Below, piece after piece: positions 1-63,215 of a DNA stretch of 63,725 nt. The notes below the pieces were generated by a model. That model was given only the letters and a program-made list of their open reading frames with translations, was not told the DNA's origin and did not search any database. Numbering within the stretch: the stretch's first letter is position 1; every line of letters begins with the position of its first letter. Both the position numbers and the translations under genes were made by a program. The DNA comes from a virus. The stretch lies in the UHGV virus genome UHGV-0036031; one strand, 5' to 3'.

Positions 1-286
1 CGGCGCAAATATACAATGATCCACCACCTGACCAACACCACACCGAAAATAAACCCTACACCCCCCAGCACGGCAGCTTTCCACCTTTATTTAGAACCGT
101 TCTAAACTACTCGCAGCCTGCATCGCGCACAAGGCCAGCCGCAACCACCCCACCAACCCGTCACCCGCGCCAATCCATCAGCCACCGGACAGGGGTTGCA
201 GCAGTACGCCATGCGCGAGGGCTTCTGTTTCGGGGCGTATTGCTGCAACCCGGTGTTGTGCGGCGTGATTTTTAAGCATTAAGGCA

Positions 287-814
287 ATGGGCAAAAGGTC
301 AGACTTCCAAAGAATAGATCGGGACTACTACCCGACACCAGCAGAGGCAGTAGGTCCGTTGGTGCCACACTTGCCGCTGGCGCCGTTCTGGTACACCGAA
401 CCTTGCGGTGGCGACGGAAGACTTGTGAGGCACTTGGACGACCTGACACAAGGCCGTGCTCGATGCGAGTACGTGTGCGACCTTGAGCCGCAGATACCAG
501 AGGTTGAGCAATTCGATGCGCTGGGCATACAGTCGGCGTCCATGTTCATCACAAACCCGCCATGGGACAGGAAGGTGCTGCATCCGCTCATTGAGCACCT
601 TTCGAGCGTGGCTCCAACGTGGCTCCTGTTCGATGCCGACTGGATGCACACCAAGCAGTCGAGGCCAATGGTTCAGAGGCTCAAAAAGGTCGTGAGCGTG
701 GGCCGGGTTAGATGGATTGAAGGCACCAACATGACGGGCAAAGACAACTGCTGCTGGTATCTGTTCGAGGCCCGCGACGAAGGACAACCCGCTCAATTCT
801 TTGGAAGGCTATGA
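287..814 (+). CDS. Small DNA N-methyltransferase (N6-adenine/N4-cytosine class)
   Basis: 175-aa ORF. An 'FITNPPW' motif, (D/N)PP(Y/F/W), at aa ~88-94. A Gly-rich 'YTEPCGGDGRL' candidate SAM-binding motif I at aa ~36-46. N-terminal 'DRDYYPTP' segment. Flanked on both sides by CA-rich non-coding DNA. Confidence 0.6.
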   Translation: MGKRSDFQRIDRDYYPTPAEAVGPLVPHLPLAPFWYTEPCGGDGRLVRHLDDLTQGRARCEYVCDLEPQIPEVEQFDALGIQSASMFITNPPWDRKVLHPLIEHLSSVAPTWLLFDADWMHTKQSRPMVQRLKKVVSVGRVRWIEGTNMTGKDNCCWYLFEARDEGQPAQFFGRL

Positions 815-1235
815 GCGGTGGTATTTTCATGCCGCACAACATATCGCATGCGACATAGACCCAGACCGTAACGAGCTACCAGGGGGCATCTATTACACGC
901 CAAGGCCCTCCCATAGCCATCCAACGGTCAAGGCGGCTCTAACCCGTGGCGCAAGTAGACCGGCCAAGGGATAACATGTTGACGGCCATTGGCCCATATT
1001 CCGGCCCGCCAAGGGCATGGCGCGTCTTCCACCGCCAAAAGGTCACCCGCCCCCTCGCCCGTGGGAAAACAAGGGTGGCCCGCCCTCACATGGCACCGCG
1101 CACCGTGGGCGGCTCATGGGGCCCCTTTCCATGGCCGGGGGTGCCTCACAGCAGGCGCGGTTACCCCCTCCCACCCACCCCCGCCCCCACCACCACGGGT
1201 ACCCTTCCCCATTCTTGGTTTAGGGTTTAGGGGTT

Positions 1236-13362: not shown

Positions 13363-14072
13363 TGGAGACGCTGCGAACGATATGGTCCGACGTGAAGAGG
13401 ACCTTGGCACAGACCAAGGATGACCTCGACATCCCCGACATGCAGGGATGGTACTGGACGCTCGTTGTCGCCGACCGCCTGCGCATGCAGCACATCGTGA
13501 AGATGCGCAGCGGCGCCTACCTCACGCGGTTCGTGCTGCCCGTGCTAACCGACACGGCCTTCACATCGCGCTACTACGTGACGCTGCCAAGGAGCATCTA
13601 TGACATCGACCTCGATGCGGCCGTGGAGTGCCTGTGCTACTGGAGGCCGTCCGCCTGCACGCCCGACTACGAGCGCATCACCTTCTTCCGAAGCGACTTC
13701 TCCCGGATACGGTCCCGCGCCATGAGCAAGTACCAGATGCCGGACCCCGCACATCCCTACTTCCTGCGGGAAGGTGACAGGCTGTATCTCGAAGGCGTGG
13801 CCGCAGGGCTGAACAATATCGAGGCACACCTGTACACCACCCTGCCGGACGTGGACAGCGTGGACCCAGACATGCCACTGGACTTCCCCAAGGAACTGAT
13901 ATACCCGCTGATCCGGGCGCTGAGGGACATGGGGCGCTTCGCCCTTGCCATGCCCGGAGAGCACCTGACCAATGACGGCACCAACCGACCGGCGGGGCGC
14001 GTGGCCGGTGCCCCCGAGAAGACGGTGAGCGTGAACGACCCCCTTGTGAACACTGGCGATGCCGACAAGTAG
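13362..14072 (+). CDS. Hypothetical virion protein
   Basis: 236-aa ORF. Its start overlaps the previous stop. Confidence 0.4.
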   Translation: METLRTIWSDVKRTLAQTKDDLDIPDMQGWYWTLVVADRLRMQHIVKMRSGAYLTRFVLPVLTDTAFTSRYYVTLPRSIYDIDLDAAVECLCYWRPSACTPDYERITFFRSDFSRIRSRAMSKYQMPDPAHPYFLREGDRLYLEGVAAGLNNIEAHLYTTLPDVDSVDPDMPLDFPKELIYPLIRALRDMGRFALAMPGEHLTNDGTNRPAGRVAGAPEKTVSVNDPLVNTGDADK

Positions 14073-14811
14073 CGGATATATATCCCCAGACGAGATCATC
14101 GCCGACGCCACGAGCCTTGTGGATGACGAGGGCTTCAAGAAGTTCAGCTACGGAAGCTACTTGTCAGAGGTCCAGCAGGCCCTCGGTGAACTGGCCTTCG
14201 ACACGCACTTCGACGACAAGGTGTGGTACTCCACCATCCCCCCGGACCTGCAAGTGCAGTTGCCCGAAGGGGTGGTCAGCATCGAGCGCATGTTCGTCTA
14301 CAACGGGGAGTGCTCACCCACCTCCATCGTACCCTTGCGCAAGGCCGTGGGCTTCACCCGCATGAAGGGCGCTACCTTCAAGGAGCAGATGGGGATCGGC
14401 AACACCGACGCCATCATGGATGACGTGTACAGCTACCCCCACGGGGTGCCGTACTACAACACCATCGGCGGTGTGATAATGCTCAGTGACGCCTGTGTGG
14501 CCTTCAGCAACATCATGGTCCGGTACAAGGGCCTGGGGTGCAACCTCGGTGACGCCCCGGTGATACCCTATGAGCTTCGTCAAGCCGTGAAGCTGTATGT
14601 GGCCAACGCCCAGCTCACCAAGCTCTTCGCACGGGAACCCGCACGCTGGGGCGCCGTGCTCCAGAACGTGAAGCGCGACCTGCACGTGGGCAACGGACCC
14701 CTCGACCCCGGCGCGTGGGTCAGGGCCAAGCGGCGCGTGCAGGCCATCGACAAGAAGGAGGCACGTGACATCGCCCTCTACCTGACGCGCTTGCAAAGCC
14801 CGCCGTATTGA
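14059..14811 (+). CDS. Hypothetical virion protein
   Basis: 250-aa ORF overlapping its neighbours by 14 and 4 nt. Confidence 0.4.
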   Translation: MPTSSGYISPDEIIADATSLVDDEGFKKFSYGSYLSEVQQALGELAFDTHFDDKVWYSTIPPDLQVQLPEGVVSIERMFVYNGECSPTSIVPLRKAVGFTRMKGATFKEQMGIGNTDAIMDDVYSYPHGVPYYNTIGGVIMLSDACVAFSNIMVRYKGLGCNLGDAPVIPYELRQAVKLYVANAQLTKLFAREPARWGAVLQNVKRDLHVGNGPLDPGAWVRAKRRVQAIDKKEARDIALYLTRLQSPPY

Positions 14812-41047: not shown

Positions 41048-42048
41048 GGTTCCGCTGGCCGTGGTCCCGCAAACCTAAGCCGCCCCAGTACCCGGCGCGG
41101 CGCAACGGCTTCAACGCCGCCTTCGCCGCCAACTACGCGGGCATCACCGGCTTCGTGCCGCTCCTGCGCGAGCTTGGGGCCTGCTCCCCCGGCTTCGTCC
41201 TGCGCTTCCCCGGTGGCACGCTCGCCAACTACACGCACACCTCCGGGCGCGGCTACGGCCTCGTCCACTCGGAGATCGCTAACGCACCCCAATCCATCGC
41301 AGAGCAGTTCGCCAAGGACCAATCCACGACGGCCAACCACCTCGACACGATGGTGGCGCTGGCCAAGGACAGCGGTGCGGCGGTGCTGTGGGTGGCGAAC
41401 CTGTATACCGGCAGGCTGATCGAGACGGTGGAGGCCATCGGTGCCTTCAAGGCTGCCGGTGTGGAGGTCGTGGGCGTGGAGCTTGGCAATGAGTGGTATT
41501 TGACCCGATACCGCGACAAGTACCGCGATGTGTATGACTATGCCACGCAGGCTAAGGCATGGCGCGATGAGATCAAGCGCAACTGGCCCGACATGCCCGT
41601 GGGCGTGATCGTGGCACCATCGGCAGGCATGAAGGATGCGGACAGCGGGCGCGGGAGGGCCAAGATCCTCAGCGCCGCAAACGAGGTGCTGCGCGATCTC
41701 AAATGGCCGGATGCCTACGTGCTGCACTCCTACGCCCAAGCCGCCGACCCGGCGGGGCACCGCGATGCGCTGCGCGATCATCTGGACACGTTCGCCAAGC
41801 CGGTGTGGATCACCGAGTGGAACCTCCACGGCACGGAGAACGGCGGCACGGCAACTCAGTTGATGCACTACGGCGCTATGATGGACATGCTGGACGAGGT
41901 GCCCAAGGTGACGGTGCAGACTCTGCACAACCTTGCGGCCACGGGGGAGGGGTACAACGTGGTGCGGTGCAAGGTGAGGGGCGCGGAACTGACGCGGCTG
42001 GGCGAGGTGATACTGGAGCGGAACAACACGAAGCGGAACAATGTGTGA
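41044..42048 (+). CDS. Glycoside hydrolase, clan GH-A (TIM-barrel) type; candidate polysaccharide depolymerase
   Basis: 334-aa ORF. 'VGVELGNEW' is an acid/base NE(P/W) motif. 'VWITEWN' is a nucleophile TE motif about 100 aa downstream. This is the typical spacing of GH5-like enzymes. Confidence 0.6.
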
Positions 42049-44590
42049 GAATTGCGGATGTGGACAGGGGCAGGGCGTGGTGTTCATCACCGGCCCGACA
42101 GGCCCCCAAGGATTACGAGGACCAGAAGGGCCTGTCGGTCCTGCCGGGCCACCGGGTCTGGCCGGTGATACAGGCCCCCAGGGACCACAAGGACCACAAG
42201 GCCCGGCCGGACCACAAGGCCCGGCCGGTGACACGGGACCCCAGGGACCACAAGGCCCAGCCGGGCCCAATGGCCTCCAAGGTCCAGCCGGGCCTGTCGG
42301 TCCTGCCGGTACGGGCATCAACCTGCTGGGGTCCCTTGGGGATCCCGGCGACCTGCCGGGTGGTGGGAACACACAGGGCGACGCCTACCTCATATCCGGC
42401 AACATCTGGGTATGGAGTGATGGGTCATCGTCATGGATCAACTCGGGCAGCATACAAGGTCCTGCCGGGCCACAAGGTCCTGCCGGAGCCACGGGAGCCA
42501 CGGGTGCCACAGGGGCCACGGGTGCCACCGGGCCGCAGGGGCCACAGGGTCCACAAGGACCACAGGGTCCACAAGGACCGGCTGGGCCGGGTAGTTCCTT
42601 CTCGGGAGCCTACAACGACCTGATAGGTATCCCGTCCTCCTTCACGCCAAAGAACCATGCGGCACGCCACAAGGCTGGGGGGAATGACATGATCCGTCTC
42701 GATGAGCTGGGGGACCCCACGGACAACACGAACCGCAACGCCACCACGGGGCGGCACGGGTTGATGCCGAAGCTCAGTGGTGATGCCATGAAGTACATGG
42801 CTGGTGACGGGACATGGAAACCCCTCCCTAACGGCCTTGGCGGCGGCAACGTCATGGGGCCGACCAATGGGTCCGTGGATTGGGCACCCGTGTATTTCGA
42901 CGGGGCCACCGGCCTTGCCATCAAGGGCATGCCACGGTACCTGCAACCCTACGCCCGCAAGTCGGGCTTCGGCGTGTTCGACCTTGAGGAAGTGTACGGG
43001 TTGACGGGGTACAATGGCCCCATGAAACTGAACCAGCTTTACACCACGACCGAGGCGCAGGCCAAGTTCCCCAAGCTGTTCCAATGGTATGTGGCCGCTG
43101 GCATGAGCACGGCGCAGGTGATGTCCATCCGGCATGGTGCGGCATGCGCGAACGAGGCGGTATTGCAGGGGCACACGGACGGGAACATAGGAAGCGGCAA
43201 GGTGAACTCCCTGAACACGGTGATCTGGCCACGTGGGGTATTCCCGTGCAACATCGCCGTGATGATCGACGCCGGGAGGTACATCGGCAAGGGAACCCAT
43301 TCCGTTGACATGCACGGCGAGGAGATCCCCAATGCCACGACCATCGTGCCCGACATCACCGGATGGCTTGAGCCGGGAAAGGATATGACGCCGTTCCAGA
43401 CAACGACCACGCCGGGCTTCTCCCTCTACAACTACGTGGAGGGCGGGTATGTGTCCGGGTTCCGGTTCCAGGCACCCTATGGTGGCCGGTACCATGACAC
43501 CTCCGTGCATTGCTCAGGCATGCTGGTGGCGTGGGCCGGTGAGGTGTTCCGCATCGGGGATGTGAAGATGGACGGGTTCAACGACTACGGCCTTGAGTTG
43601 ATCGGGGCCACGCCCATCCTCGTGGATAACATCAGTGTGTTCCTCAACCGCAAGGGGGGTATCGGCGCCATCGGGTCCGCCCTGTCCACCATGCGCTTCG
43701 GCATGGTGAGTGCCGACGACAACCCTGCCATCTTCCGGGTGGACAGCAACTACAACGGAACCCACGGGGCGGCTGGCGGGAACATCAGTGTGGGTGGCGT
43801 GAAGGAAGAGACGAATTACCCCGACCGGCCACCCGCGATGTCCCAGATCCTGCTGTGGGCTGACGGGAACAGCGGCACGGGTTCCAATGACGGCGCCCAA
43901 CTGAACTTCACCGCCGAGAACGTCGCCTTTGCCTACAACGGGGCATCCGGGAGACGGCACGCCGCCTGCGTGGTCAAGGGCTTCAGCCAGAATGCGGCAG
44001 GAGGCTACTCCGGTGCCAGCCAAGCGAGGGTCAAGGTCGGCGGGATGAAGGGGTGGAACTACGACTACCTGCTTCACTGCCTGCGTACCGGCAACGCATG
44101 GGCTGCACGGCCCGACTATGAGGGTGTGGGCTTGGAGTGGAATGCCTCCACCGGGACGCTGGCAAGGGGGGCGGCTGATGGTTCCGCCGGTTCCGCCGTG
44201 GCCGTCACCACGGGCGGCGTCAAGTCAACCAGCCGTCTGGCACTGAAGACAACAGAGCCGACATGGAATGATGTGGCGGCATACGACATCACCAACGGCG
44301 GTGTTCCGGGTTCCTTCCCGTCGATCACGGCCAATGATTCAGCCGTGGGGGTGGGTGTGGTCCCAGCCGAGATCCATGTGGGTGAGACGGCGGCATTGTC
44401 GGTGCAGCGTGTTGACCGGAACAAGCAGCTTCATGGCGCCGGGGCGACGTGGTATGTAGGGTATTCCGCATCCACGGGCAACGGCACCATCGCCGGGACC
44501 ACCTTCACGGCGACAGCACCGGGCCTTGTTCAAGTGAGGGCCGTGGCGGGCGGATGCACGGGTATTGGATGGGTGAATGTTCTTCCATGA
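42041..44590 (+). CDS. Collagen-like tail fibre / tailspike with C-terminal Big_2 domain
   Basis: 849-aa ORF. N-terminal '[12 protein letters not shown]'. Two long Gly-X-Y tracts: [11 protein letters not shown]... at aa ~17-95, and [33 protein letters not shown] at aa ~140-185. The C-terminal ~85 aa '[22 protein letters not shown]...TWYVGYSAS...[18 protein letters not shown]' has a Big_2 (bacterial Ig-like) pattern. Confidence 0.6.
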
Positions 44591-47359: not shown

Positions 47360-47458
47360 TCGCGATGGCACCTAACACACGCTATACGGCACCCTCCCAT
47401 CGCACTGGCCCAACACGCGCCGCATAGCTCCAACGTTGGTGGCAATGCCAATTACCAC
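47360..47458 (-). repeat. Early-region composite-hairpin repeat, copy 1 (subfamily B), at the 3' end of the minus-strand gene arm
   Basis: '...CACACGCTATACGGCAC...GCGCCGCATAGCTC...GGCAATGCCAATTACCAC'. It overlaps the stop codon TAA (47452-47454) of the last early gene. It shares the CTATACGGC/GCCGCATAG inverted repeat with the copy at 62819. Confidence 0.6.
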
Positions 47459-47892
47459 TCCGTCTCTACTTCGCAGATCCATCCTTGAAGTTGTAGGTGC
47501 CTGCGTATGTAGTCGCAGAATGTAGGACATCCACCGGGCGATGCCTCATCAATAGTGACGCGGTAGGTTCCGTCCGCGAAAGCCTTCACCTCGCAGCACT
47601 TCAGGTCGCCCCAGTTGATAGCTTCTTCTTCCACTCCTAACTGCTCACATCGCACCGGGTCACGCTGGTAGAACATCTGGTCGCCTTCGACCACTGGCCT
47701 GTAAAGCGCCCCAATAAGCCGATCAACGGCCTTGTCGATCAACTCTTCAGCCGTTGTCTCAATGCCGCACAACTTCAAGTGTGCAAGTAGTTCTGGTCCG
47801 TTCATCTTGCTACCTATTGACCTCAAATCCGAAAAGCACTGCCACCAACATGCACCTATGCGGCATTCTCCCCACGCACGACCGATGCTCAC
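47452..47892 (-). CDS. Hypothetical early protein (true start likely ATG at 47805)
   Basis: The listed ORF starts with GTG inside the repeat. Its N-terminal 29 aa are a read-through translation of the repeat. An ATG at 47805 ('MNGPELLAHLKLC...') follows the conserved leader box, giving 117 aa. Confidence 0.45.
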   Translation of the reverse strand: MSIGRAWGECRIGACWWQCFSDLRSIGSKMNGPELLAHLKLCGIETTAEELIDKAVDRLIGALYRPVVEGDQMFYQRDPVRCEQLGVEEEAINWGDLKCCEVKAFADGTYRVTIDEASPGGCPTFCDYIRRHLQLQGWICEVETEW

Positions 47893-47934
47893 GCCGCAGA
47901 GCTGCTGAACCGTTCTGCGCCATGCAATTACAAC
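47831..47934 (-). repeat. Early-region composite-hairpin repeat, copy 2 (full)
   Basis: 'GAAAAGCAC...CACCTATGCGGC-ATTCTCCCCACGCACGACCGATGCTCAC-GCCGCAGAGCTG...GTTCTGCGCCATGCAATTACAAC'. The 3' end overlaps the stop of gene 47928..48143. Confidence 0.65.
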
Positions 47935-48143
47935 TGCGGACCAGCATCCAGAACCTTGTAATGGGTGACGTGCTCCTCAACGAATTGCATTCCGTGTGCG
48001 CCAAAGTGTACCCACTCAACACCTCCGCGCTCACTGTCCTGCCAAAAGGCCGTGTACTGACACTTGTTGCTTGGGCACCATACCAGCACAGCTCTGCGCT
48101 TTGGCGGCATCTTCGTGTAGTCGAGTTCAATCCAGTCGTTCAT
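47928..48143 (-). CDS. Hypothetical early protein
   Basis: 71 aa. ATG verified at 48143. Preceded by the conserved leader '...CATAGGTTGATCAAGTAACAACGAACGACG-ATG'. Confidence 0.45.
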   Translation of the reverse strand: MNDWIELDYTKMPPKRRAVLVWCPSNKCQYTAFWQDSERGGVEWVHFGAHGMQFVEEHVTHYKVLDAGPQL

Positions 48144-48193
48144 CGTCGTTCGTTGTTACTTGATCAACCTATGGCCTACTGGCCTTAACCCAT

Positions 48194-48229
48194 GAAAAGC
48201 ACGGCGCAGAACATGCAGCTATGCGGCAT
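48194..48229 (-). repeat. Half copy (left arm only) of the early-region repeat
   Basis: 'GAAAAGCACGGCGCAGAACATGCAGCTATGCGGCAT', with no matching right arm downstream. Confidence 0.5.
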
Positions 48230-48500
48230 GCCCTCAACACAGGTCCAACGCGCTCCCACCGAATGCGTCGTTTGCGAAAGCCCCCAACGCACTTGTGTGG
48301 CCCTTTCTGCGTAAATCTGTCGCGACCACACAACATACAACGCCACCGAAGCTCGGCACTTCCACCAACAGCAGTTTGCTGCAAGCGGCCCGTCTGCTCT
48401 TCGTTCGGAATGTTCGTCTGATCCTCCATGTCCGTGCTTCGTTTCAGTGTTTGTGTGTAGCCGCCTTCAGCAACCTGCGGAACGTCCGTTGGCAGCAAGT

Positions 48501-48764
48501 TTATTGAACCCACCACTCAACGACTTTACCTGTAACTCTATCAACAATACAAGCCTTTGCGACTGTATCATCAACAAGTGCTTTGTATTCCTGTGCTTCT
48601 TTAAGCGTTTTGACAGGCTCGGCAATGTTTTCAACTTTCTTAAATCCGACTTCTGTAAAGCCTTTAAAAGAAATGGTTACAACATAACGAAAACCTGCTG
48701 CCACCACCTGCTTTACAATAGCAGGGCTGACATCTATATTTTGAGCCTTTGCAATTCTATTCAT
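48501..48764 (-). CDS. Hypothetical early protein in an AT-rich (foreign-looking) cassette
   Basis: 87 aa. Local GC ~40% versus ~60% for the surrounding genome. Its leader is AT-rich and lacks the conserved box. Confidence 0.4.
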   Translation of the reverse strand: MNRIAKAQNIDVSPAIVKQVVAAGFRYVVTISFKGFTEVGFKKVENIAEPVKTLKEAQEYKALVDDTVAKACIVDRVTGKVVEWWVQ

Positions 48765-49256: not shown

Positions 49257-49282
49257 GTAGTTCTGCGCCATGCAATTACAAC
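49257..49282 (-). repeat. 3'-terminal fragment of the early-region repeat
   Basis: 'GTAGTTCTGCGCCATGCAATTACAAC', overlapping the stop (49276-49278) of gene 49276..49500. Confidence 0.5.
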
Positions 49283-49500
49283 CCTTCGGGAGGATCAGGC
49301 AGTCGCATCCAGTGAGTGACGTTCCCGCAACTATTGCCAAATAGGTCAGACCATACCATGACCAGTTCATCTTCGACCTTGCGGAGCACGTAGCTACCCA
49401 CTCGTACACCCCACTTCGAGTAGTCGTACATGATGACCTCCTCACCAGCCCGAGGCCGGGAGTGGTCGATCGGTATCCAGTTTTCCATCGTTGTTCGCAT
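49276..49500 (-). CDS. Hypothetical early protein
   Basis: 74 aa. The conserved box '...GCGAACAACG-ATG' suggests the second ATG (49488) may be the real start. Confidence 0.45.
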   Translation of the reverse strand: MRTTMENWIPIDHSRPRAGEEVIMYDYSKWGVRVGSYVLRKVEDELVMVWSDLFGNSCGNVTHWMRLPDPPEGL

Positions 49501-49540
49501 TTACCTGTTCAACCTACTGACCTAATGCCTGAATGCCATG

Positions 49541-49631
49541 AGAAAGCACGGCGCAGAACATGCAGCTATGCGGCATCCTCCCCGCGCACGACCGAAGCTC
49601 ACGCCGCATAGCTGCTGGACCGTTATGTGGC
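49541..49631 (-). repeat. Early-region composite-hairpin repeat, copy (full)
   Basis: 'AGAAAGCACGGCGCAGAACATG-CAGCTATGCGGC-ATCCTCCCCGCGCACGACCGAAGCTCAC-GCCGCATAGCTG-CTGGACCGTTATGTGGC'. A 12-bp perfect inner stem. Overlaps the HNH gene stop. Confidence 0.65.
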
Positions 49632-50021
49632 AGCGAAAAGACCACCGTCGCGGGTTCTAAGGCGGGCAGTACGGACATCCTCTCGCGTCTTCTTCCGGTG
49701 GCACGGCAGACAAAGGGTTTGATACCCCGACAAGTCGCAGCCTCCGCCACCGTTTACGACCGCCGTGATGTGATCGGCCTCCCACTCACGGTTCTCGGCA
49801 CCGCATCCGGCGCACACGCCATCATCGCGCTTGTAAAGCTCCTTGCGAATGGTGCCCACATCGCCCTTCACGATCAGGAACTCGGTCACGGCGGTTCTCT
49901 CGCACTCGTATCCGCACCATCGGCGCTGCCTGCCAGGAAGTACGCCTTGGCAGTAGGCGCAGCGGCCTTTCTCCCGCGTCGGGAACATGCTGTTGATGGT
50001 CATGCCTTTATTGTACCTCAT
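49623..50021 (-). CDS. HNH endonuclease
   Basis: 132 aa. 'CAYCQG...RWCGYEC' (Cys4 zinc ribbon) followed by 'GVCAGCG...EADHITAVVNGGGGCDLSGYQTLCLPCHRKKT' (HNH motif with the second Cys pair). Confidence 0.7.
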   Translation of the reverse strand: MRYNKGMTINSMFPTREKGRCAYCQGVLPGRQRRWCGYECERTAVTEFLIVKGDVGTIRKELYKRDDGVCAGCGAENREWEADHITAVVNGGGGCDLSGYQTLCLPCHRKKTREDVRTARLRTRDGGLFAAT

Positions 50022-50043: not shown

Positions 50044-50136
50044 GAAGCGCCGCCACAGAACATGCACCTATGCGGCATTCTACCCACGCACGACCGATGC
50101 TCACGCCGCATAGCTGCTGGACCGTTCTGCGCCATG
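50044..50136 (-). repeat. Early-region composite-hairpin repeat, copy (full, best-preserved)
   Basis: Outer stem GCGCCGCCACAGAAC/GTTCTGCGCC, internal loop ATG/CTGGACC, inner stem CACCTATGCGGC/GCCGCATAGCTG, apical loop ATTCTACCCACGCACGACCGATGCTCAC. Confidence 0.7.
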
Positions 50137-50145
50137 GAAATGCGA

Positions 50146-50376
50146 CTACTTGTTTCTGTCAGTCGCCACGAGCACTCCTCCATTCATCTTCCCGGCAGGT
50201 CTTATGCGTTCGACATAAGTACTATGCCGCCATCCAGTGGCGCTCGCCACAACGTCAATGTCTATCCAAACAGTTGTTGCTATTTCTCGACCGCACAATA
50301 CCCTGAGCCTGTCACGCCAGCCCAGCTTCGTGCGTGCCGTGTGCGCTACAGTGTCCCTTGTTTCTTTGTTCTTCAT
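50146..50376 (-). CDS. Hypothetical early protein
   Basis: 76 aa. ATG verified. Conserved leader '...GTAACTAAGCAACGAACAACG-ATG'. Confidence 0.4.
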   Translation of the reverse strand: MKNKETRDTVAHTARTKLGWRDRLRVLCGREIATTVWIDIDVVASATGWRHSTYVERIRPAGKMNGGVLVATDRNK

Positions 50377-50424: not shown

Positions 50425-50516
50425 GAGAAAGCACGGCGCAGAACATGCACCTATGCGGCATTCTACCCACGCACGACCGATGCTCACGCCGCATAGCTGC
50501 TGTGACGTTGTACGCC
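50425..50516 (-). repeat. Early-region composite-hairpin repeat, copy (full)
   Basis: 'GAGAAAGCACGGCGCAGAACATGCACCTATGCGGCATTCTACCCACGCACGACCGATGCTCACGCCGCATAGCTGCTGTGACGTTGTACGCC'. Confidence 0.65.
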
Positions 50517-50628
50517 ACCAGAGAGAACGTCAGCCCTTCGGCCAACCGGCAGCGGCAATCCGGTACGCATTGCCAGCAACCGCCTCGGCTGACCATGAAC
50601 CTGAACCGCTGACCAATGAAATGCAAGC

Positions 50629-51984
50629 TCATGGCTTAATGGCTTTAATGCGCTCTCCGATCCACCTTGCACAGGGGACCGCCCAAGAATTACCAAGGGC
50701 CCTGTAGCGTGGCCCGTCCGGGCTTTCGGGCTTGCCACGCCACGGGATGTTCGTGTAGCCTCGCGGAAATCCCTGAAGAGCCTCGCACTCTTTTGGCGTA
50801 AGTCTGCGGACCTGCGTACCCGTTGCGGTCATAGGAAGGGCGCCATGCGAACCAGCGCGAAGCGTTTCGTGAACTTCTCCCTCGATGCCTCGGTTTGTGA
50901 ATGCCAACACTTGATCGTTCGCCGTTGCCAGTGTGAGGCTTTGATCCTCCGATACCAATGGGCCTTTGCCTCCGCCTTCCTTGCCTTCGCGCATACGCAC
51001 CAGCATCGGAGGCTCGGCACGGTGCAAGGTGTGGCACGGGTCGCCCGGTTGTGGGTTGCTGCGGTTGGTAACGCTGGTGACCTGTGCGGGGTCGAAAACG
51101 ATGGGCGCTTCGTGGTTACAGGTGAGCGACGGCGAGCCGTCGCTCACCATTTCGGCACCAGACTGACCATGTGCCATGACGACGGGAAGCGGCCTGCCTC
51201 CGCCCGTTGGCGACCCCTTCATCAGCGGACCCATAGGCTCTCCTGCCCAAACTGGGTTGTTCTCATAGTCTACTCCTTCGACACCAACTCCAGAGCTTCC
51301 CGCAGTCTTTCCGGTAGGTCCTTTCCCCGTGCCTCGGCTCGGCGCAGGATGCCAGCGGCTGCCTTCGATGATAGGAAGTAGCGCGTCGGCAACGGCCCAT
51401 CTTCCAGCACCGCCGCGAGCGAGCACGAAGACCCGCTTCCGTCGCTGGGCCAAGCCGAAGTGCTGGGCGTCCAAGATCCGCCAGGCCGCGCATCGGGTTG
51501 GCCCATCAACCACACCCGCGCCGGTCCATCCGTCCGCAGGTTCAGGGATGGGGGCTGTACGTCCGACCAAGCCTCCCAAGAAGGCGCCGAAGGCGTTGTC
51601 GTTGGTGCTGAGGACGCCGGGGACGTTTTCCCAGAGGACCCAAGCTGGCTCTCTTCCAGCAGTTGATCGAAGATGGTCGATTGCATCGGCGAGCAGTACG
51701 AATTGAAGAGTGAGGTTGCCCCTGTCATCGGCCAGGGATTGCCGGTTGCCCGCCACGCTGAAGGCTTGGCACGGTGTGCCACCGCACAGCAGGTCAGCGT
51801 CCACTATCCACGGCTCATCCTTCAGCGTAGTGAAATCGCCGTGGCAAGGCGTGTCAGGGTAGTGGTGCTTCAACACAGCGCGGGGGAACGCTTCGATCTC
51901 GCTGAAGGCCAATGGCCGCCAGCCAAGAGGCTCAAAAGCCACCGAAGCGGCCTCAATGCCGGAACAGATCGAGAGGTATTTCAT
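50629..51984 (-). CDS. DNA (cytosine-5)-methyltransferase
   Basis: 451 aa. 'LSICSGIEA' (motif I), 'GGTPCQAFSVAG' (motif IV PCQ), 'ENV' (motif VI), 'RRKRVFVLA' (motif VIII), a variable TRD region, then 'TPKECEALQGFP' and 'GNSWAVP' (motifs IX/X). Confidence 0.85.
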   Translation of the reverse strand: MKYLSICSGIEAASVAFEPLGWRPLAFSEIEAFPRAVLKHHYPDTPCHGDFTTLKDEPWIVDADLLCGGTPCQAFSVAGNRQSLADDRGNLTLQFVLLADAIDHLRSTAGREPAWVLWENVPGVLSTNDNAFGAFLGGLVGRTAPIPEPADGWTGAGVVDGPTRCAAWRILDAQHFGLAQRRKRVFVLARGGAGRWAVADALLPIIEGSRWHPAPSRGTGKGPTGKTAGSSGVGVEGVDYENNPVWAGEPMGPLMKGSPTGGGRPLPVVMAHGQSGAEMVSDGSPSLTCNHEAPIVFDPAQVTSVTNRSNPQPGDPCHTLHRAEPPMLVRMREGKEGGGKGPLVSEDQSLTLATANDQVLAFTNRGIEGEVHETLRAGSHGALPMTATGTQVRRLTPKECEALQGFPRGYTNIPWRGKPESPDGPRYRALGNSWAVPCARWIGERIKAIKP

Positions 51985-52141
51985 TGGTCAGCGGTTCAGA
52001 GAATGAAAAGGCGGCGTACAACTACAGCTTGCCGCAAGCCCGCCAAATGCGCGGGCCAGCGTCAAGCAATGCCCGTTATGGGCAAGCGAATACCCCAACG
52101 CGCAGGCCCACCCTACGCGCCGGGGGAAACGCCCATGGCCT

Positions 52142-52402
52142 TTAAGCCGTTGCGGCCTTGACCGCCCACATCGCAGCCTCTTCATACGCGGTCTGTGCGA
52201 GCGATGCCAACCGGCCATCCTTGGCCTTCAGCTCTTCGCACAGGTTGATGAGTTCGGCGCTCTTCGCCTTGATCTCCGCGATGACATCGCTGCCGGTCAC
52301 GTTGAAGTCGGTGCGTACGCGCAGTTCGCCTACCGACTTCTTTGCCTCTTGAACTTGTCCTTCCATCTTGATCGGGGTTTTACAAGGCCGCCCCAAGGCC
52401 AT
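52142..52402 (-). CDS. Hypothetical early protein
   Basis: 86 aa, coiled-coil-like. Confidence 0.35.
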   Translation of the reverse strand: MALGRPCKTPIKMEGQVQEAKKSVGELRVRTDFNVTGSDVIAEIKAKSAELINLCEELKAKDGRLASLAQTAYEEAAMWAVKAATA

Positions 52403-52492
52403 TTGCTTTGAAATTCAGAGAGCCGCCGCATAACAGCGTGGTTGTAGCCATGCAGAGCCACGGCTACAAACACGCGGCCAGTTAGTCCACAT

Positions 52493-52876
52493 TCAATACA
52501 ACGACCGAGCCTTTGCCCAAGCATTCCGGCGCTCATCTTCAAGCTCACGCACCCTTGCCTCTGATGCCTTCAGCGTCTTTTCAAGCGCCTCGATTTCAGC
52601 CTTAGCAACCTCTCCACTTCGCTTGGCGATTTCGCGGCGACCTGCATTGATGGCGGGAACAATGACGTTCACGGTATCTGCATGGGCTTCGTATGATTTC
52701 GCGCCGTGCCACCCGGCCTCGGTCCATCCATCCAATAGCTGCGCCGTCACATCGCGTATCACCTGATCGTCGCAGGCGATGTGCTGGAAAAGTTCGGTCT
52801 TGTCTTCGTCCGCAATGTTCCGGAGAAGGTCGTTGATGTCAATCACCAATGCGCCTTTTTGAATCGTCGTTTTCAT
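52493..52876 (-). CDS. Hypothetical early protein
   Basis: 127 aa. Leader '...TCTTCAGGTAACAGAAAAGTAAAC...'. Confidence 0.4.
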   Translation of the reverse strand: MKTTIQKGALVIDINDLLRNIADEDKTELFQHIACDDQVIRDVTAQLLDGWTEAGWHGAKSYEAHADTVNVIVPAINAGRREIAKRSGEVAKAEIEALEKTLKASEARVRELEDERRNAWAKARSLY

Positions 52877-53134
52877 GTTAGTGTGGTTTACTTTTCTGTT
52901 ACCTGAAGAGAGAAAGAACGTGGCCTAACAAGCCAGTATAGGCCACGAGGCGCGGCCCATACACTTGTCCGTTACCCGCCATCCGCCCCCTATGCTTCAT
53001 CATTCCGTACCCCCCGCCAGAGTGGCATCCAATCCAGAGCCAACACCCCTTGATTCTATCAATGGCGACAGAAGACTTGATCCGGGCCTTTTCTTGGTCG
53101 ATCGAGTAGTTCACTATTATAGGCTTTCGAGGCA

Positions 53135-53659
53135 TTATTTCAGGTAGTTTTTTGTGACGGTTTCTACGTCATTTATTCCATAACAAACTACGACTTTCCA
53201 TCCAGCATTCCTAAGCAATTCATGTATCCTCAACTGCGCATCACTCGGCTTGCGTGGGTAAATTTTCAGCTCGATCGCGAGGCCCACCTTGCGGTCGCCC
53301 CATCCTTCGCGGTCAGCCATGGTTCGGATGTTCTCCGGGTGGAACACCATGATGTCGGGGTATCCCGGCACCGTGCCCATGCCCTTCAGCTTCGCGCCCA
53401 CGATGGCGTTGCGCTGCCCTCCGTTGGGTATGTGCATCACGGCCTCCATCGGCACGTCCTGCGTTGCGGCGATGGTACGGACAAGGGCTATCGCGGTGCG
53501 CTGGAAGTCATCCTCCTTGCCGATGTAGGCTCCGAGCGGCTTGGTACGGCGGGTGGTCATTCGATGGACTTTTCGATTCGCCAAACAGCCTTCCAGACAA
53601 GGAAGATCCCTGACGCAATGGCGACTATGATGGGCATGGACAGACCGCCATACATCCAC
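53135..53659 (-). CDS. VRR-NUC domain nuclease (true start likely ATG 53560)
   Basis: 'GYPDIMVF...GLAIELKIYPRKPS...' is a PD-(D/E)xK core typical of VRR-NUC. The ATG at 53560 forms an ATGA overlap with the upstream gene stop, so the product is 141 aa. Confidence 0.65.
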   Translation of the reverse strand: MDVWRSVHAHHSRHCVRDLPCLEGCLANRKVHRMTTRRTKPLGAYIGKEDDFQRTAIALVRTIAATQDVPMEAVMHIPNGGQRNAIVGAKLKGMGTVPGYPDIMVFHPENIRTMADREGWGDRKVGLAIELKIYPRKPSDAQLRIHELLRNAGWKVVVCYGINDVETVTKNYLK

Positions 53660-58175: not shown

Positions 58176-58211
58176 ACTTCAAGGGTTTTGGCGAAGTCCA
58201 CAAGCGCCTCG

Positions 58212-58517
58212 TTATGGGCAAGCCGGAAAAGAGTACCAGTAGCCATATCTGTCCCTTGGGTGCCCATGCTTTACCAGTAGCCCGAGATCAGCCATTCTTG
58301 AACACCACCGCTTGAACCCTTGGCTGTGAGGGAAAATGTCGCCAGGAAAGAAATGGTCAGCTTTACCCATGGCCTCCCGGACCTTTTCGAGAGAGTAAGA
58401 TGGCCTGCCCATAACAGCAGGCTTGCCAACAGCCCCACCGTCTTCGGTTGACTGCTTATCGTTTGAAGTGTCGCTCATCGTCTTGTAGTTAAGTTGTTCG
58501 TGCGGGGCCATCGTCAA
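58212..58517 (-). CDS. Hypothetical protein
   Basis: 101 aa. Confidence 0.35.
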   Translation of the reverse strand: MTMAPHEQLNYKTMSDTSNDKQSTEDGGAVGKPAVMGRPSYSLEKVREAMGKADHFFPGDIFPHSQGFKRWCSRMADLGLLVKHGHPRDRYGYWYSFPACP

Positions 58518-58945
58518 GCCTGCGGCCCGTTGTTGTACTCGCCCGCCGTCAATTTGAGGATTTCGTCAATGGTGTACTTGCGGTCTTTGTCAATGCCCTT
58601 GGCTGCCACGAATGCCTTGCATCCTGCTGCGCACGCGCCAGTCACAGACCTGTACAGGTTGATGCTGGTGGTAAAGTCAATCTTATCGGACCGCTTCAGC
58701 GACCGGAACTCATCGACCGACCGCTTTGCGGACTTGAACAACAGGTCATACTTGGCCTCGGCCTCGGCCTCTTCCTCCTGCTTCTTGGCAAGGTAGGCTT
58801 CGCCGTCCTTGTCGTCCAGGCTGTTGATGGTATAGGTGAGGTATTCCTCCAGTCTCGCGATCTTGGCGGCGACCGGATTGAATGCCGCGATGTCCGCCCC
58901 TATCCGTTCGTTCACGGCGTTCGTGTTGACAACTTGTGCTTCCAT
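58514..58945 (-). CDS. Hypothetical protein
   Basis: 143 aa, coiled-coil-rich. Confidence 0.4.
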   Translation of the reverse strand: MEAQVVNTNAVNERIGADIAAFNPVAAKIARLEEYLTYTINSLDDKDGEAYLAKKQEEEAEAEAKYDLLFKSAKRSVDEFRSLKRSDKIDFTTSINLYRSVTGACAAGCKAFVAAKGIDKDRKYTIDEILKLTAGEYNNGPQA

Positions 58946-61931: not shown

Positions 61932-61997
61932 TCTTGCTTAGGTCTTGCACCCCGAAACCCCGCCACCTTTCGGCGCGGGGCGGCGGGGTAGGGTAGT

Positions 61998-62020
61998 GTT
62001 CTGCGCCATGCAATTACAAC
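61998..62020 (-). repeat. 3'-terminal fragment of the early-region repeat
   Basis: 'GTTCTGCGCCATGCAATTACAAC', overlapping the stop (62014-62016) of gene 62014..62238. Confidence 0.5.
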
Positions 62021-62238
62021 CCGACCGATGTTGTTACCGCTCCCGCAACGATCGGAGACACCTCGTTCAACTCTTCCACCTCTACGCCTGCGACTTCAGC
62101 ATCGTTACAACATGCCCCGAGCGTAGGTCCATCTTTAATTCCAGTGATGTCGGCAGCGGCGAACATCGCTTGTTTGGGATCGTCAGCCTCTAACCAAACA
62201 TACGCCTCAATCTTAACCTTGGCCAAGTATTTTTTCAT
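62014..62238 (-). CDS. Hypothetical early protein
   Basis: 74 aa. ATG verified. Conserved leader 'GGTCAGTAGGTTGAACAAGTAACACGAACGACG-ATG'. Confidence 0.4.
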   Translation of the reverse strand: MKKYLAKVKIEAYVWLEADDPKQAMFAAADITGIKDGPTLGACCNDAEVAGVEVEELNEVSPIVAGAVTTSVGL

Positions 62239-62280: not shown

Positions 62281-62378
62281 GAGAAAGCACGGCGCAGAAC
62301 AGGTCAGTTGCCTCCATGCAAATTGCACCGCACGGCGGCAACTGCCCGGACCGTTGGTGGCAATGCGAATGACCACTA
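62281..62378 (-). repeat. Early-region repeat, variant copy with compensatory inner-stem substitutions
   Basis: The left outer arm GAGAAAGCACGGCGCAGAAC is conserved. The inner stem is replaced by CAGTTGCC (62305-62312) and GGCAACTG (62337-62344), an 8-bp perfect inverted repeat. It ends CAATGCGAATGACCACTAC, overlapping the stop (62376-62378). Confidence 0.6.
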
Positions 62379-62771
62379 CTCCCGCACAAAGTCCACGCTC
62401 TCTGAATAGTACCCGTTGCTCGTGCCGTAGAACTTCAGTGTCATGTAGCCCTTGACCGTGGCCAAGCGGTAGAACGTCCAGGTGAAGGTGCCGTATTCCT
62501 TGTCCAATGGGTCGGCAGGCTCGGCCGGTGTTTCGCTCACCTCTTCGGCCAGCGTGATCGGCGAACCAATGATGTCTTCATCGCTGCCCTCCACATCGTC
62601 AAGGCTTACGCTTTCGCAGCAGTCTTGTTGATGTATGAACGCCATGGTTGAGCCATCGGCCAAGTGCAGCCGCATCAACACCTCACCGCCGCCTTTGCGA
62701 TCAATGGCCGTTACCGTTTGGCCTACAAGGGCCTTCAAGTTGTCCTCTGTATTCTGATCATAGTAGCTCAT
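62376..62771 (-). CDS. Hypothetical early protein
   Basis: 131 aa. Start and stop verified against the sequence. Confidence 0.4.
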   Translation of the reverse strand: MSYYDQNTEDNLKALVGQTVTAIDRKGGGEVLMRLHLADGSTMAFIHQQDCCESVSLDDVEGSDEDIIGSPITLAEEVSETPAEPADPLDKEYGTFTWTFYRLATVKGYMTLKFYGTSNGYYSESVDFVRE

Positions 62772-62818
62772 CTGTTACGGGTTCGTTTAGCCGCCCAAGG
62801 CTTACATACCTGAAATCC

Positions 62819-62906
62819 GAAAAGCACCGCCACCAACACACGCTATACGGCACTCGCCAACGCACATCCTCAACACGCGCCGCATAGCTCTGTCCGTTCA
62901 GCGCAC
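62819..62906 (-). repeat. Early-region repeat, subfamily B copy
   Basis: 'GAAAAGCACCGCCACCAACACACGCTATACGGCAC...GCGCCGCATAGCTCTGTCCGTTCAGCGCAC', overlapping the stop (62898-62900) of gene 62898..63215. Confidence 0.6.
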
Positions 62907-63215
62907 CTCGAAGCCGTCGATGTTCATGCCACGGCGCATCGCGAGGCCGGTCAGGTGGCGGCTGTCGCCGATGCCGTACACACGGTGCAGGCTGCCGTTG
63001 GCGTGGGCGGCACGGACCTTGTGAGCGTCCCATTGCCCGTGGATGGTGATGCCATTGACGTGGCAGGCGCCTGCCGCCTTGGAGTAGTTTTCCATGGTGA
63101 AGAGGCAGGCGCCGTTCGTGTAGATGGTCTTGGTGTTCATCGTGTGAGGTGTTTGTTGTTCGTTGGTGAGGCAAATATAAGGGCCCGCAAAGCCTTTGTG
63201 CAGGTCCTTACGCAA
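62898..63215 (-). CDS. First early gene of the minus arm (true start likely ATG 63140, 80 aa)
   Basis: The listed start is TTG. The ATG at 63140 follows '...CCTCACCAACGAACAACAAACACCTCACACG', a variant of the conserved leader box. Confidence 0.4.
   Translation of the reverse strand: MRKDLHKGFAGPYICLTNEQQTPHTMNTKTIYTNGACLFTMENYSKAAGACHVNGITIHGQWDAHKVRAAHANGSLHRVYGIGDSRHLTGLAMRRGMNIDGFEVR

Follow-up and report, generated by a model that had tools for sequence, protein, structure and literature searches.

The intergenic repeats of this phage genome are probably the junctions of a mobile array of accessory-gene cassettes, where they would work as structure-specific recombination sites resembling the attC sites of integrons. 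Judged by its layout, the array is most likely a mirror image of the integrase-less attC clusters known as CALINs. At least a dozen swappable accessory-gene cassettes are present in the genome.

The window analyzed here, a stretch of 63,725 nucleotides, represents most of a podovirus-like phage genome of ~64.6 kb; an ENA contig of 64,955 bp carries the same genome, of which ~900 bp fall beyond the window. The genome codes for a portal protein, a muzzle-like protein of the crAss type and a polyvalent protein of 3507 aa, and its early/replication arm runs on the minus strand from ~63,200 down to 47,450. A Bacteroidota host is suggested by the absence of Shine-Dalgarno sequences from the phage genes, by the TATATTTG motif upstream of the first early gene in the window, and by a related array on a contig binned into a Flavobacteriales MAG (L040). 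No near-identical relative of the early arm was found among 50,697 phage records, and the Rfam and tRNA scans gave no matches. Exact repeat motifs had only single, apparently chance matches in IMG/VR, the DUF7448 protein had no close relative in IMG/VR or in GTDB genomes, and the DnaB relatives in IMG/VR were only ~30% identical. Scanning of genomes with the loop motif returned 9 matches including one real array, that of the Flavobacteriales MAG contig, whereas ~12 real elements were recognized among the 120 matches listed by a metagenome scan with a 17-mer.

The repeats form a family of ~16 intergenic elements on the transcribed (minus) strand, including those at 62287-62366, 62824-62909 and 47363-47448. 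Searches for repeats, alignments and a covariance model trained on 24 elements together gave, in the window, ten full copies, one half copy, two long-loop forms, one plus-strand copy (186-276) and two 5' arms that stand alone. The model recovered its ten full training copies in the window at E <=1e-11 and added four sites on which it had not been trained (186-276 on the plus strand, 48191-48282, 58394-58542 and 48348-48501). Read along the sense strand, every element opens with the stop codon of the gene before it, after which come a 14-nt 5' arm with AAC at its end, a spacer of 4-8 nt (mostly GGWCC), a hairpin with a GC-rich stem of 10-17 pairs and a variable loop, a second spacer of 1-6 nt, and a 14-nt 3' arm beginning with GTT. 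Beyond the 3' arm, a pyrimidine-rich tract (GTGCTTTYTC) and then ~40 nt of A-rich leader precede the next ATG. Among 24 non-redundant elements from the window and related contigs, the only invariant columns are AAC and GTT. The elements and the cassettes identified between them are the following.

62824-62909, minus strand: element c8, with a 5' arm at 62896-62909 (GAGGTGCGCTGAAC) that includes the TGA stop of the gene 62898-63140, a hairpin at 62838-62895 and a type B 3' arm at 62824-62837 (GTTGGTGGCGGTGC); z = -5.6, 60 bits.
62376-62771, minus strand: gB, a DUF7448 protein of 131 aa, with type B arms (GTTGGTGGCGGTGC upstream, GCATTGCCACCAAC downstream).
62287-62366, minus strand: element c7, the variant copy, with a type B 5' arm at 62353-62366, a hairpin at 62301-62352 with the CAGTTGCC/GGCAACTG core, and a type A 3' arm at 62287-62300 (GTTCTGCGCCGTGC), then the T-tract GTGCTTTCTC; 65 bits.
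62014-62238, minus strand: gC, a protein of 74 aa with no family match, with type A arms.
61957-62011, minus strand: end of the first array, with the gC 5' arm at 61998-62011 (GCATGGCGCAGAAC) and then backbone (ACTACCCT).
61957-61989, minus strand: a GC-rich hairpin past the end of the first array.
58211-58542, minus strand: a single cassette with a long-loop element (the 58-kb cassette), with a 5' arm at 58529-58542, a stem-loop at 58416-58528 that contains the ATG of the ORF (58476-58478), a 3' arm at 58402-58415 (GTTATGGGCAGGCC) within the ORF, and the matching 5' arm at 58211-58224 (GGCTTGCCCATAAC); 18.5 bits.
52916-52984, minus strand: element w52a, the start of the main array, with 5' arm GGATGGCGGGTAAC, hairpin 52930-52970 and 3' arm GTTAGGCCACGTTC; 52 bits.
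52421-52494, minus strand: element w52b, with 5' arm GAATGTGGACTAAC, hairpin 52435-52480 and 3' arm GTTATGCGGCGGCT; 56 bits.
52142-52402, minus strand: an Acb2/Tad1-like protein of 86 aa (PF24729, E = 6e-14).
52009-52088, minus strand: element w52c, with 5' arm CGCTTGCCCATAAC, hairpin 52023-52074 and 3' arm GTTGTACGCCGCCT; 56 bits.
50629-51984, minus strand: a C5 cytosine DNA methyltransferase of 451 aa, between GTTGTACGCC... (52009-52022) and ...GGCGTACAAC (50507-50520).
50431-50520, minus strand: element c6, with 5' arm TGGTGGCGTACAAC, canonical hairpin 50445-50506 and a type A 3' arm; 69 bits.
50048-50137, minus strand: element c5, with a type A 5' arm that closes the cassette 50146-50376, canonical hairpin 50062-50123 and 3' arm GTTCTGTGGCGGCG; 66 bits.
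49623-50021, minus strand: an HNH endonuclease, in a cassette closed by the c4 5' arm.
49546-49635, minus strand: element c4, with 5' arm CGCTGCCACATAAC, canonical hairpin 49560-49621 and a type A 3' arm; z = -2.8, 71 bits.
49276-49500, minus strand: a DUF551 protein; a second DUF551(-like) cassette lies at 47928-48143.
49260-49273, minus strand: a lone type A 5' arm that closes the DUF551 cassette and has no hairpin after it (AAC, then TACGAAAT).
48356-48500, minus strand: element e13, a weak long-loop form with a 5' arm at 48488-48500, the ATG of the downstream ORF in its loop and a 3' arm at 48356-48369 (GTTGGTGGAAGTGC) within that ORF; 12 bits, E = 0.17.
48199-48260, minus strand: half element c3, the 3' half of the canonical hairpin and a type A 3' arm at 48199-48212, upstream of the DUF551-like cassette 47928-48143; 28 bits.
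47836-47925, minus strand: element c2, with a type A 5' arm, canonical hairpin 47850-47911 and a type B 3' arm (GTTGGTGGCAGTGC); 75 bits.
47363-47448, minus strand: element c1, the last of the genome arm, with a type B 5' arm that closes the cassette 47452-47808, a hairpin at 47377-47434 of the c8 subfamily, and 3' arm GTTAGGTGCCATCG with no gene beyond; 53 bits.
187-840, plus strand: a cassette on the opposite genome arm, with hairpin 187-254, 3' arm 255-268 (GTTGTGCGGCGTGA) and matching 5' arm 827-840 (TCATGCCGCACAAC); 36 bits, E = 3e-7, a site on which the model had not been trained.
287-814, plus strand: the ORF of this cassette, a probable DNA methyltransferase of 175 aa with an NPPW motif.

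An earlier note on this DNA had singled out the copy 62281-62378, together with a second subfamily of copies, and all of its sequence statements are correct on re-check. The outer left arm that this copy was said to keep, GAGAAAGCACGGCGCAGAAC at 62281-62300, has identical counterparts at 49540 and 50425 and another, differing by 3 mismatches, at 48193 (4 matches vs 0.01 expected). For the 3' end, GGTGGCAATGCGAATGACCAC at 62356-62376, the only further occurrence is at 47438 and has 2 mismatches. The inner stem, described as different and still complementary, is formed by exact complements (CAGTTGCC, 62305-62312, and GGCAACTG, 62337-62344), and on the minus strand it extends to ~11 pairs (fold z = -3.2). 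The two members of the second subfamily, 62824-62909 and 47363-47448, indeed have a common inner stem, GCTATACGGC / GCCGCATAGC, in which an A·C mismatch on the plus strand corresponds to a G·U pair on the minus strand. One correction is that the 'outer left arm' of the copy 62281-62378 is not complementary to its '3' end'.

The note had further read the changed stem as covariation, the signature of a selected structure. At the family level, this claim stands for the inner stem, which is under structural selection. Among 24 elements, the inner stem is paired in 89.6% of cells, compared with 61% in shuffles, and its covariation score of 0.613 (0.174 in shuffles) is reached in 0 of 500 shuffles; slid-register controls score 0.05-0.15. 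RNAalifold gives a consensus of 10 pairs, with double changes in 9, and one inner-stem pair is G·U in 20 of the 24 sequences. Since both covariation and pairing lie beyond the shuffles, the general claim is retained. The part that fell concerns c7 itself, which did not arise from a canonical copy by stepwise compensatory change. The c7 hairpin, 52 nt long, is a module in its own right and is found near-identical in L028/L029, with one mismatch in the spacer after AAC. These loci also carry the c7 3' arm and a largely identical 5' UTR, and belong to a lineage that is distant from the window (55% identity of the DUF7448 protein, 29-45% of the tail proteins). The variant copy is thus a module replacement, with the hairpin, the 3' arm and most of the leader near-identical in these distant loci. 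Similarly, the w52c hairpin is near-identical (one mismatch) in L019, where it has other arms. In L028/L029, the c7 flanks enclose an ORF that is unrelated to the gC gene of the window; such common flanks around unrelated ORFs, in the gC cassette and in the L028 cassette, count against the attC-like reading, as they are not predicted by simple whole-cassette transfer.

The arms obey a rule of their own. The 14-nt 3' arm that precedes a gene is complementary to the 14-nt 5' arm that follows that gene. In 26 cassettes picked by position only, 175 of the 182 variable arm positions pair across the gene (96%), compared with 111 of 203 arm positions (55%, the chance level) across the element's own hairpin. 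The observed average of 6.73 out of 7 positions compares with a mean of 4.08 out of 7 upon random re-pairing and with 5.35 out of 7 in the best of 10,000 permutations. The sense-strand layout is GTT-N7-G-N3 ... gene ... N3-T-N7-AAC; the G·T at arm position 11 is present in every one of the 26 cassettes, and the set comprises ~15 arm types. Further arm types were found in arrays L044, L086, L125 and L151, and metagenomic arrays reach eight or nine consecutive cassettes (L125). For instance, the arms on the two sides of the c7 hairpin (TTGCCACCAAC vs GTTCTGCGCC) and of the c2 hairpin (GGCGCAGAAC vs GTTGGTGGC) are not complementary, and the w52b 5' arm pairs with the w52a 3' arm across the gene 52493-52876. 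The rule is kept in the 58-kb cassette, where the 3' arm lies inside the ORF, in the plus-strand cassette 255-840, and in cassettes that carry low-GC cargo in reverse orientation (genes of 334 aa and 116 aa, MerT/ArsR), in which the polarity of the G·T pair follows the array and not the gene. The sole cassette with a poor arm match (4/7 core positions) is that of the Acb2/Tad1-like protein. The earlier picture of arms and stem as one hairpin per copy is therefore given up in favor of pairing across the flanked gene, as the outer arms of 28 of 29 elements are mismatched in the arrayed state.

As a positive control, we analyzed a class 1 integron array (L164; intI1-estX-psp-aadA2-cmlA1-aadA1-qacL), looking for complementarity between the stretch that follows GTT in the preceding attC and the stretch that leads up to AAC in the attC of the cassette itself. 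In this array, 8-12 nt pair across the gene, whereas pairing across the attC as arrayed ends after 3-6 nt; the class 1 attC sites retrieved are nearly all of one 60-bp type. The across-gene pairing in the integron array arises because the crossover at G^TT (the caret marks the break; PMC9892861) splits the cassette's site on integration. The phage arms follow the integron rule, and thus bear the mark known from structured recombination sites that insertion has split. The literature that we searched contained no description of such gene-specific arm pairs in phage arrays.

These observations leave very little room for the explanation that the repeats arose by tandem duplication of an intergenic region and are now decaying without any function, their palindromes being due to chance. 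Such duplications would account for the several copies that are clustered within 3 kb and have 80-90% identity, but the stem covariation and the across-gene arm pairing are far beyond the controls, and the element family is present in many distinct metagenomic contigs with unrelated cargo. We therefore consider this explanation scarcely credible.

The folding of the sites depends on which arms are joined. The array-state folds of four copies are no better than shuffles (z from -0.8 to +1.3), because their outer arms are mismatched. When a site is reconstituted by joining the cassette's own arms to the hairpin, as in a circle, the fold consists of an outer stem of 13-15 bp, an asymmetric internal loop, an inner stem of 11-17 bp and a loop. 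The array elements are 69-98 nt long, the 15 reconstituted sites tested are 72-94 nt, and the long-loop forms are ~141-145 nt. Conserved in these folds are the G·T pair of the outer stem, the G·U pair of the inner stem and the unpaired GGWCC spacer of 4-8 nt. In 15 of 15 reconstituted sites, the sense strand is more stable than its complement, by ~4-9 kcal/mol, since the complement has A·C mismatches in place of its G·T pairs.

Because the strand that folds is also the transcribed strand, the elements may have an added RNA-level role alongside recombination. In a rival explanation, the hairpins would be attenuators, RNase processing sites or 3'-end stabilizers of regulatory cassettes in a polycistronic early transcript, comparable to the RNase III sites of T7 or the PeSLs of T4-type phages, the arms would be long-range mRNA stems closing each cistron, and the shuffling of genes would be a by-product of homologous recombination. 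This explanation is in line with the intergenic position of the elements and their co-orientation with transcription on both genome arms, with the restriction of the conserved G·U and of the stronger folding to the sense strand, and with the T-rich tract and conserved A-rich 5' UTR after the 3' arm. However, sigma-70-type promoter and canonical terminator signals do not exceed the shuffles: the consensus scan, confined to promoters of the sigma-70 as opposed to the Bacteroidota type, gave 7 promoter-like and 22 terminator-like sites compared with 6.0 and 17.7 in shuffles, and none of them falls consistently within the elements. The terminator function that the earlier note had listed is thus unsupported, the T-tract being located 15-20 nt from the inner stem. 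An intrinsic terminator was also considered as a candidate and rejected, as the T-tract follows the 3' arm and not the stem, and the outer arms are mismatched in 28 of 29 arrayed elements. Among the functions proposed there (terminator, processing, recombination), recombination fits best. The RNA-level explanation is further at odds with an arm polarity that follows the array rather than the gene in reversed cassettes, with 3' arms that lie inside ORFs, and with integron arrays that reproduce the across-gene pattern. To our knowledge, stems that bracket cistrons in phage mRNA have no precedent.

Evidence for cassette mobility comes from related metagenomic phages, which have common backbones and different cassettes. 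Contigs that are nearly identical to the window diverge just past the 5' arm of the DUF7448 gene: exactly the unit 'hairpin c7 + gC + 5' arm' is absent from L013, and other cassettes occupy the same point in L011 and L014. In a second lineage, one and the same backbone gene ends in GGCGGGTAAC and is followed directly by four different cassettes (L026, L027, L028 and L030). The arrays of this lineage terminate at AAC^TACTAGG, and a single cassette of 144 aa was found at three different positions. In the all-against-all list, ~20 of the 50 unique breakpoints of homology are, as we read them, located at AAC, often joining arms that have nothing else in common, and a few are located at ^GTT or within common hairpins, leaders/UTRs or the conserved 3' module. 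The breakpoints after AAC imply that the hairpin goes with the downstream gene, and it usually moves with the downstream 3' arm and UTR. The breakpoints outside this position imply that homologous recombination also shuffles modules. The breaks are found at the gene-proximal AAC and not at G^TT, an observation that speaks against the attC-like reading. A candidate inversion between L031 and L032 was dropped, being an annotation difference only.

The breakpoints bear on the RNA-level explanation in both directions. Some of them lie within common hairpins and UTRs, and ORFs are exchanged between identical flanks, as expected for homology-driven shuffling. A phage precedent is documented in the PeSL elements, mini-circles included (PMC2839356). 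Nevertheless, homology-driven shuffling leaves unexplained the invariance of AAC and GTT, the conserved G·T and the junctions with AAC only (L013 vs the window). Altogether, we consider a purely RNA-level reading of the arrays unlikely.

Another explanation is that each gene belongs to a transposon-like unit of the MITE or IS type, which has 14-bp terminal inverted repeats (GTT...AAC) and was inserted by a transposase beside pre-existing palindromic targets. Perfect gene-specific inverted repeats do bound each unit, and the cassette GTTACCCGCC...GGCGGGTAAC, common to L086 and L151, has hairpins that differ on both sides. However, the unit of insertion or deletion between L013 and the window includes the hairpin, and neither direct target-site duplications nor a transposase were found. 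In addition, ~15 unrelated repeat sequences with only GTT/AAC in common are a poor fit to one transposase, and the same gene is associated with two different self-complementary arm pairs in L027 and L044. Transposition of this kind is therefore very improbable.

Under the preferred attC-like reading, the 5' arm, the hairpin and the 3' arm would be brought together when a cassette is free, probably as a circle, or when single-stranded DNA folds. The joined site would be a long imperfect hairpin, with a 14-bp outer stem containing the conserved G·T, an asymmetric spacer (usually GGWCC), an inner stem of 10-17 bp and a variable loop. Recombination at the invariant AAC/GTT would insert the cassette elsewhere and split the outer stem to both sides of the gene. 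The site would mostly stay with the downstream gene (site first, gene second), thus forming an integron cassette in mirror image, and homologous recombination between common hairpins and UTR modules would add to the shuffling. As no recombinase was detected in the phage, the enzyme may act in trans, as a host integron-type integrase would, or may be an unrecognized phage protein. Neither a tyrosine recombinase nor an HUH nuclease was identified in the 70 window ORFs or in neighboring contigs. Pfam and PHROGs searches for recombinases among these ORFs, the backbone proteins and the metagenomic neighbors gave only VRR-NUC, HNH, exonuclease and DnaB. Likewise, no Phage_integrase-type domain was found in the 70 ORFs or in neighboring loci, and the ~900 bp beyond the window contain only ORFs of 145 aa and 113 aa. 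A circular cassette was not observed, which also counts against the attC-like reading.

A more specific proposal, which we put forward only tentatively, is that the arrays represent an undescribed cassette-exchange system of phages with probable Bacteroidota hosts. Its site-first cassettes would carry long structured single-strand sites, in which a 14-bp outer stem that always contains a G·T pair is combined with a GGWCC spacer and an inner hairpin. These sites would be cut at AAC by an enzyme other than a classical integron integrase, either an unrecognized phage protein or a host factor. Cassettes would be traded between phage lineages and, as the MerT/ArsR cargo hints, with bacterial DNA.

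The cargo of the cassettes is typical accessory or anti-defence material. In addition to the methyltransferases, HNH endonuclease and Acb2/Tad1-like protein of the window, the cargo of other arrays includes N6/N4 methyltransferases, an FkbM methyltransferase, MerT/ArsR and a protein with a weak PAPS-reductase match. Turnover of accessory and anti-defence genes in phages is fast, and it is mostly ascribed to illegitimate or short-homology recombination. Our results point to the cassette junctions as a route by which phages trade anti-defence genes, in an environmental phage family whose arrays of ~16 sites obey the integron split-site rule in mirror image, without a recognizable integrase. If the sites are recombinogenic, single-strand recombination of the integron type would be a regular engine of phage genome plasticity and would provide a defined route of gene flow between phages and bacterial cassette pools. 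In that case, the GTT-N7-G-N3 ... N3-T-N7-AAC rule could be used to find cassette cargo in metagenomes, new anti-defence genes included. If the tentative proposal of a separate exchange system holds, the array would be a dedicated platform for anti-defence gene trade.

Among known systems, the phage elements can be compared with T7 early-region RNase III sites, PeSLs and integron attC sites. The RNase III hairpins of T7 are similar in being long interrupted hairpins with G·U pairs, located between early genes of one transcript and alike from site to site. Neither these sites nor intrinsic terminators are known to have gene-bracketing complementary arms, an invariant AAC/GTT or presence/absence polymorphism of cassettes, and, unlike in intrinsic terminators, the U-tract of the phage elements is not adjacent to the stem. 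The PeSL cassettes of T4-type phages, which recombine by homology, join a strong sigma-70 promoter to a functional terminator (Arbiol et al. 2010, PMC2839356; PMC4122927). Both groups have repeated intergenic stem-loops that flank small non-essential ORFs in plastic regions and mark the boundaries of insertions, deletions and replacements between related phages, and circular intermediates have been proposed for both. The phage elements described here differ in that no such promoter or terminator signal was found in them, their junctions have only AAC in common, and their gene-specific complementary arms are without counterpart in the PeSL abstracts.

The closest similarity is to integron attC sites, which are defined as 57-141 bp long with two paired boxes, an unpaired spacer and a variable terminal loop (PMC3053210). 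The phage sites have this size and the same plan of outer stem, unpaired spacer, inner stem and variable loop; they are variable imperfect palindromes between ...AAC and GTT... in which only the triplets are conserved, the stop codon is often within the ...TAAC arm, and one strand folds better. As in integrons, the arm at the gene end is complementary to the arm at the gene start and not to the adjoining arm of the array, and the arrays consist of promoterless-looking single-gene cassettes, methyltransferases included, with occasional reversed cargo. Some arms fit the RYYYAAC/GTTRRRY consensus (ACCTAAC/GTTAGGT, GCCTAAC/GTTAGGC), whereas most depart from it (GCAGAAC, CACCAAC, GGGTAAC). In contrast to attC sites, the phage arms are longer (14 nt) with a fixed G·T, and the folds are without single extrahelical bases of the T-N6-G kind and have an asymmetric spacer (4-8 vs 1-6 nt). 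The phage breakpoints are mostly located after AAC, with the hairpin going with the downstream gene, whereas integrons break at G^TT and the attC follows its gene. Unlike in a complete integron, no IntI or attI was found with the phage array, although a CALIN requires neither; unlike integrons and CALINs, the arrays are located at fixed places across a whole phage family. CALINs have been reported from a small number of virulent phages, and of six sites tested, five were recombined by IntI1 (Qi et al. 2023, PMC9892861).

One gene was found between two different pairs of the 14-nt arms that bracket a cassette, at 13894-14327 in locus L027, where it has a Pfam Lockin match, and at 398-832 in locus L044. 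The arm pairs are CTTGGCA/TGCCAAG and GTACGGC/GCCGTAC, each internally complementary, and homology between the two loci begins and stops precisely where the variable cores of the arms have their inner edge, beside the conserved G·T. Arm matching is poor in a single cassette only (4 of 7 core positions), whose cargo belongs to a cyclic-nucleotide sponge family:

52142-52402, minus strand: Acb2/Tad1-like protein of 86 aa, cassette cargo

Among the related metagenomic arrays, the following cassette is bounded by GTTATGGGC...GCCCATAAC and adjoined by a DUF7448 cassette:

L020 (Logan SRR31678696), 57-1371, genes reversed: cassette with MerT-HMA and ArsR-type genes, 1.3 kb, 34% GC

This cassette suggests that cargo is exchanged with bacterial DNA.

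Several elements carry a long hairpin loop:

58402-58542 and 48356-48500 of the window, minus strand; L026 12473-12850; L028 8150: long-loop elements

The downstream ORF has its start codon in this loop and continues across the 3' half of the stem and on through the 3' arm; thus, otherwise unrelated proteins have an N-terminal peptide (..NEEQTGRLQQ.AV..) in common.

Some 5' arms have on their 5' side another hairpin, small and conserved (CCCCGGCGCG...CGCGTTGGGG), with TATTCGCT after it:

52089-52140 of the window, minus strand; L027 13293-13360 and 14277-14340: second small hairpin

The hairpin and TATTCGCT apparently form a 3' module of their own, common to unrelated cassettes.

At the upstream edge of the main array, which is opened by element w52a, two features were identified:

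52899-53135, minus strand: 78-aa ORF resembling the N-terminus of an HNH endonuclease and running into w52a
53135-53659: VRR-NUC nuclease gene, directly upstream of the main array

The HNH-like ORF may be a gene cut off by the array.

The window's first early gene is preceded by a long non-coding stretch, which includes a 13-bp hairpin (63628-63666) and, close to 63170, the motif TATATTTG:

63141-63725: non-coding stretch

The genome closes ∼900 bp beyond the window, and this gap holds two more early ORFs (145 and 113 aa).

The window also contains two large ORFs:

42041-44590, plus strand: 849-aa ORF with collagen-like GXY repeats (Pfam Collagen)
21968-32491, plus strand: 3507-aa ORF with DdrB-like ParB, LPD1 and LPD5 domains

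The collagen-like ORF is probably a tail fibre, and the 3507-aa ORF appears to encode one of the large polyvalent proteins that are thought to be co-injected with the DNA.
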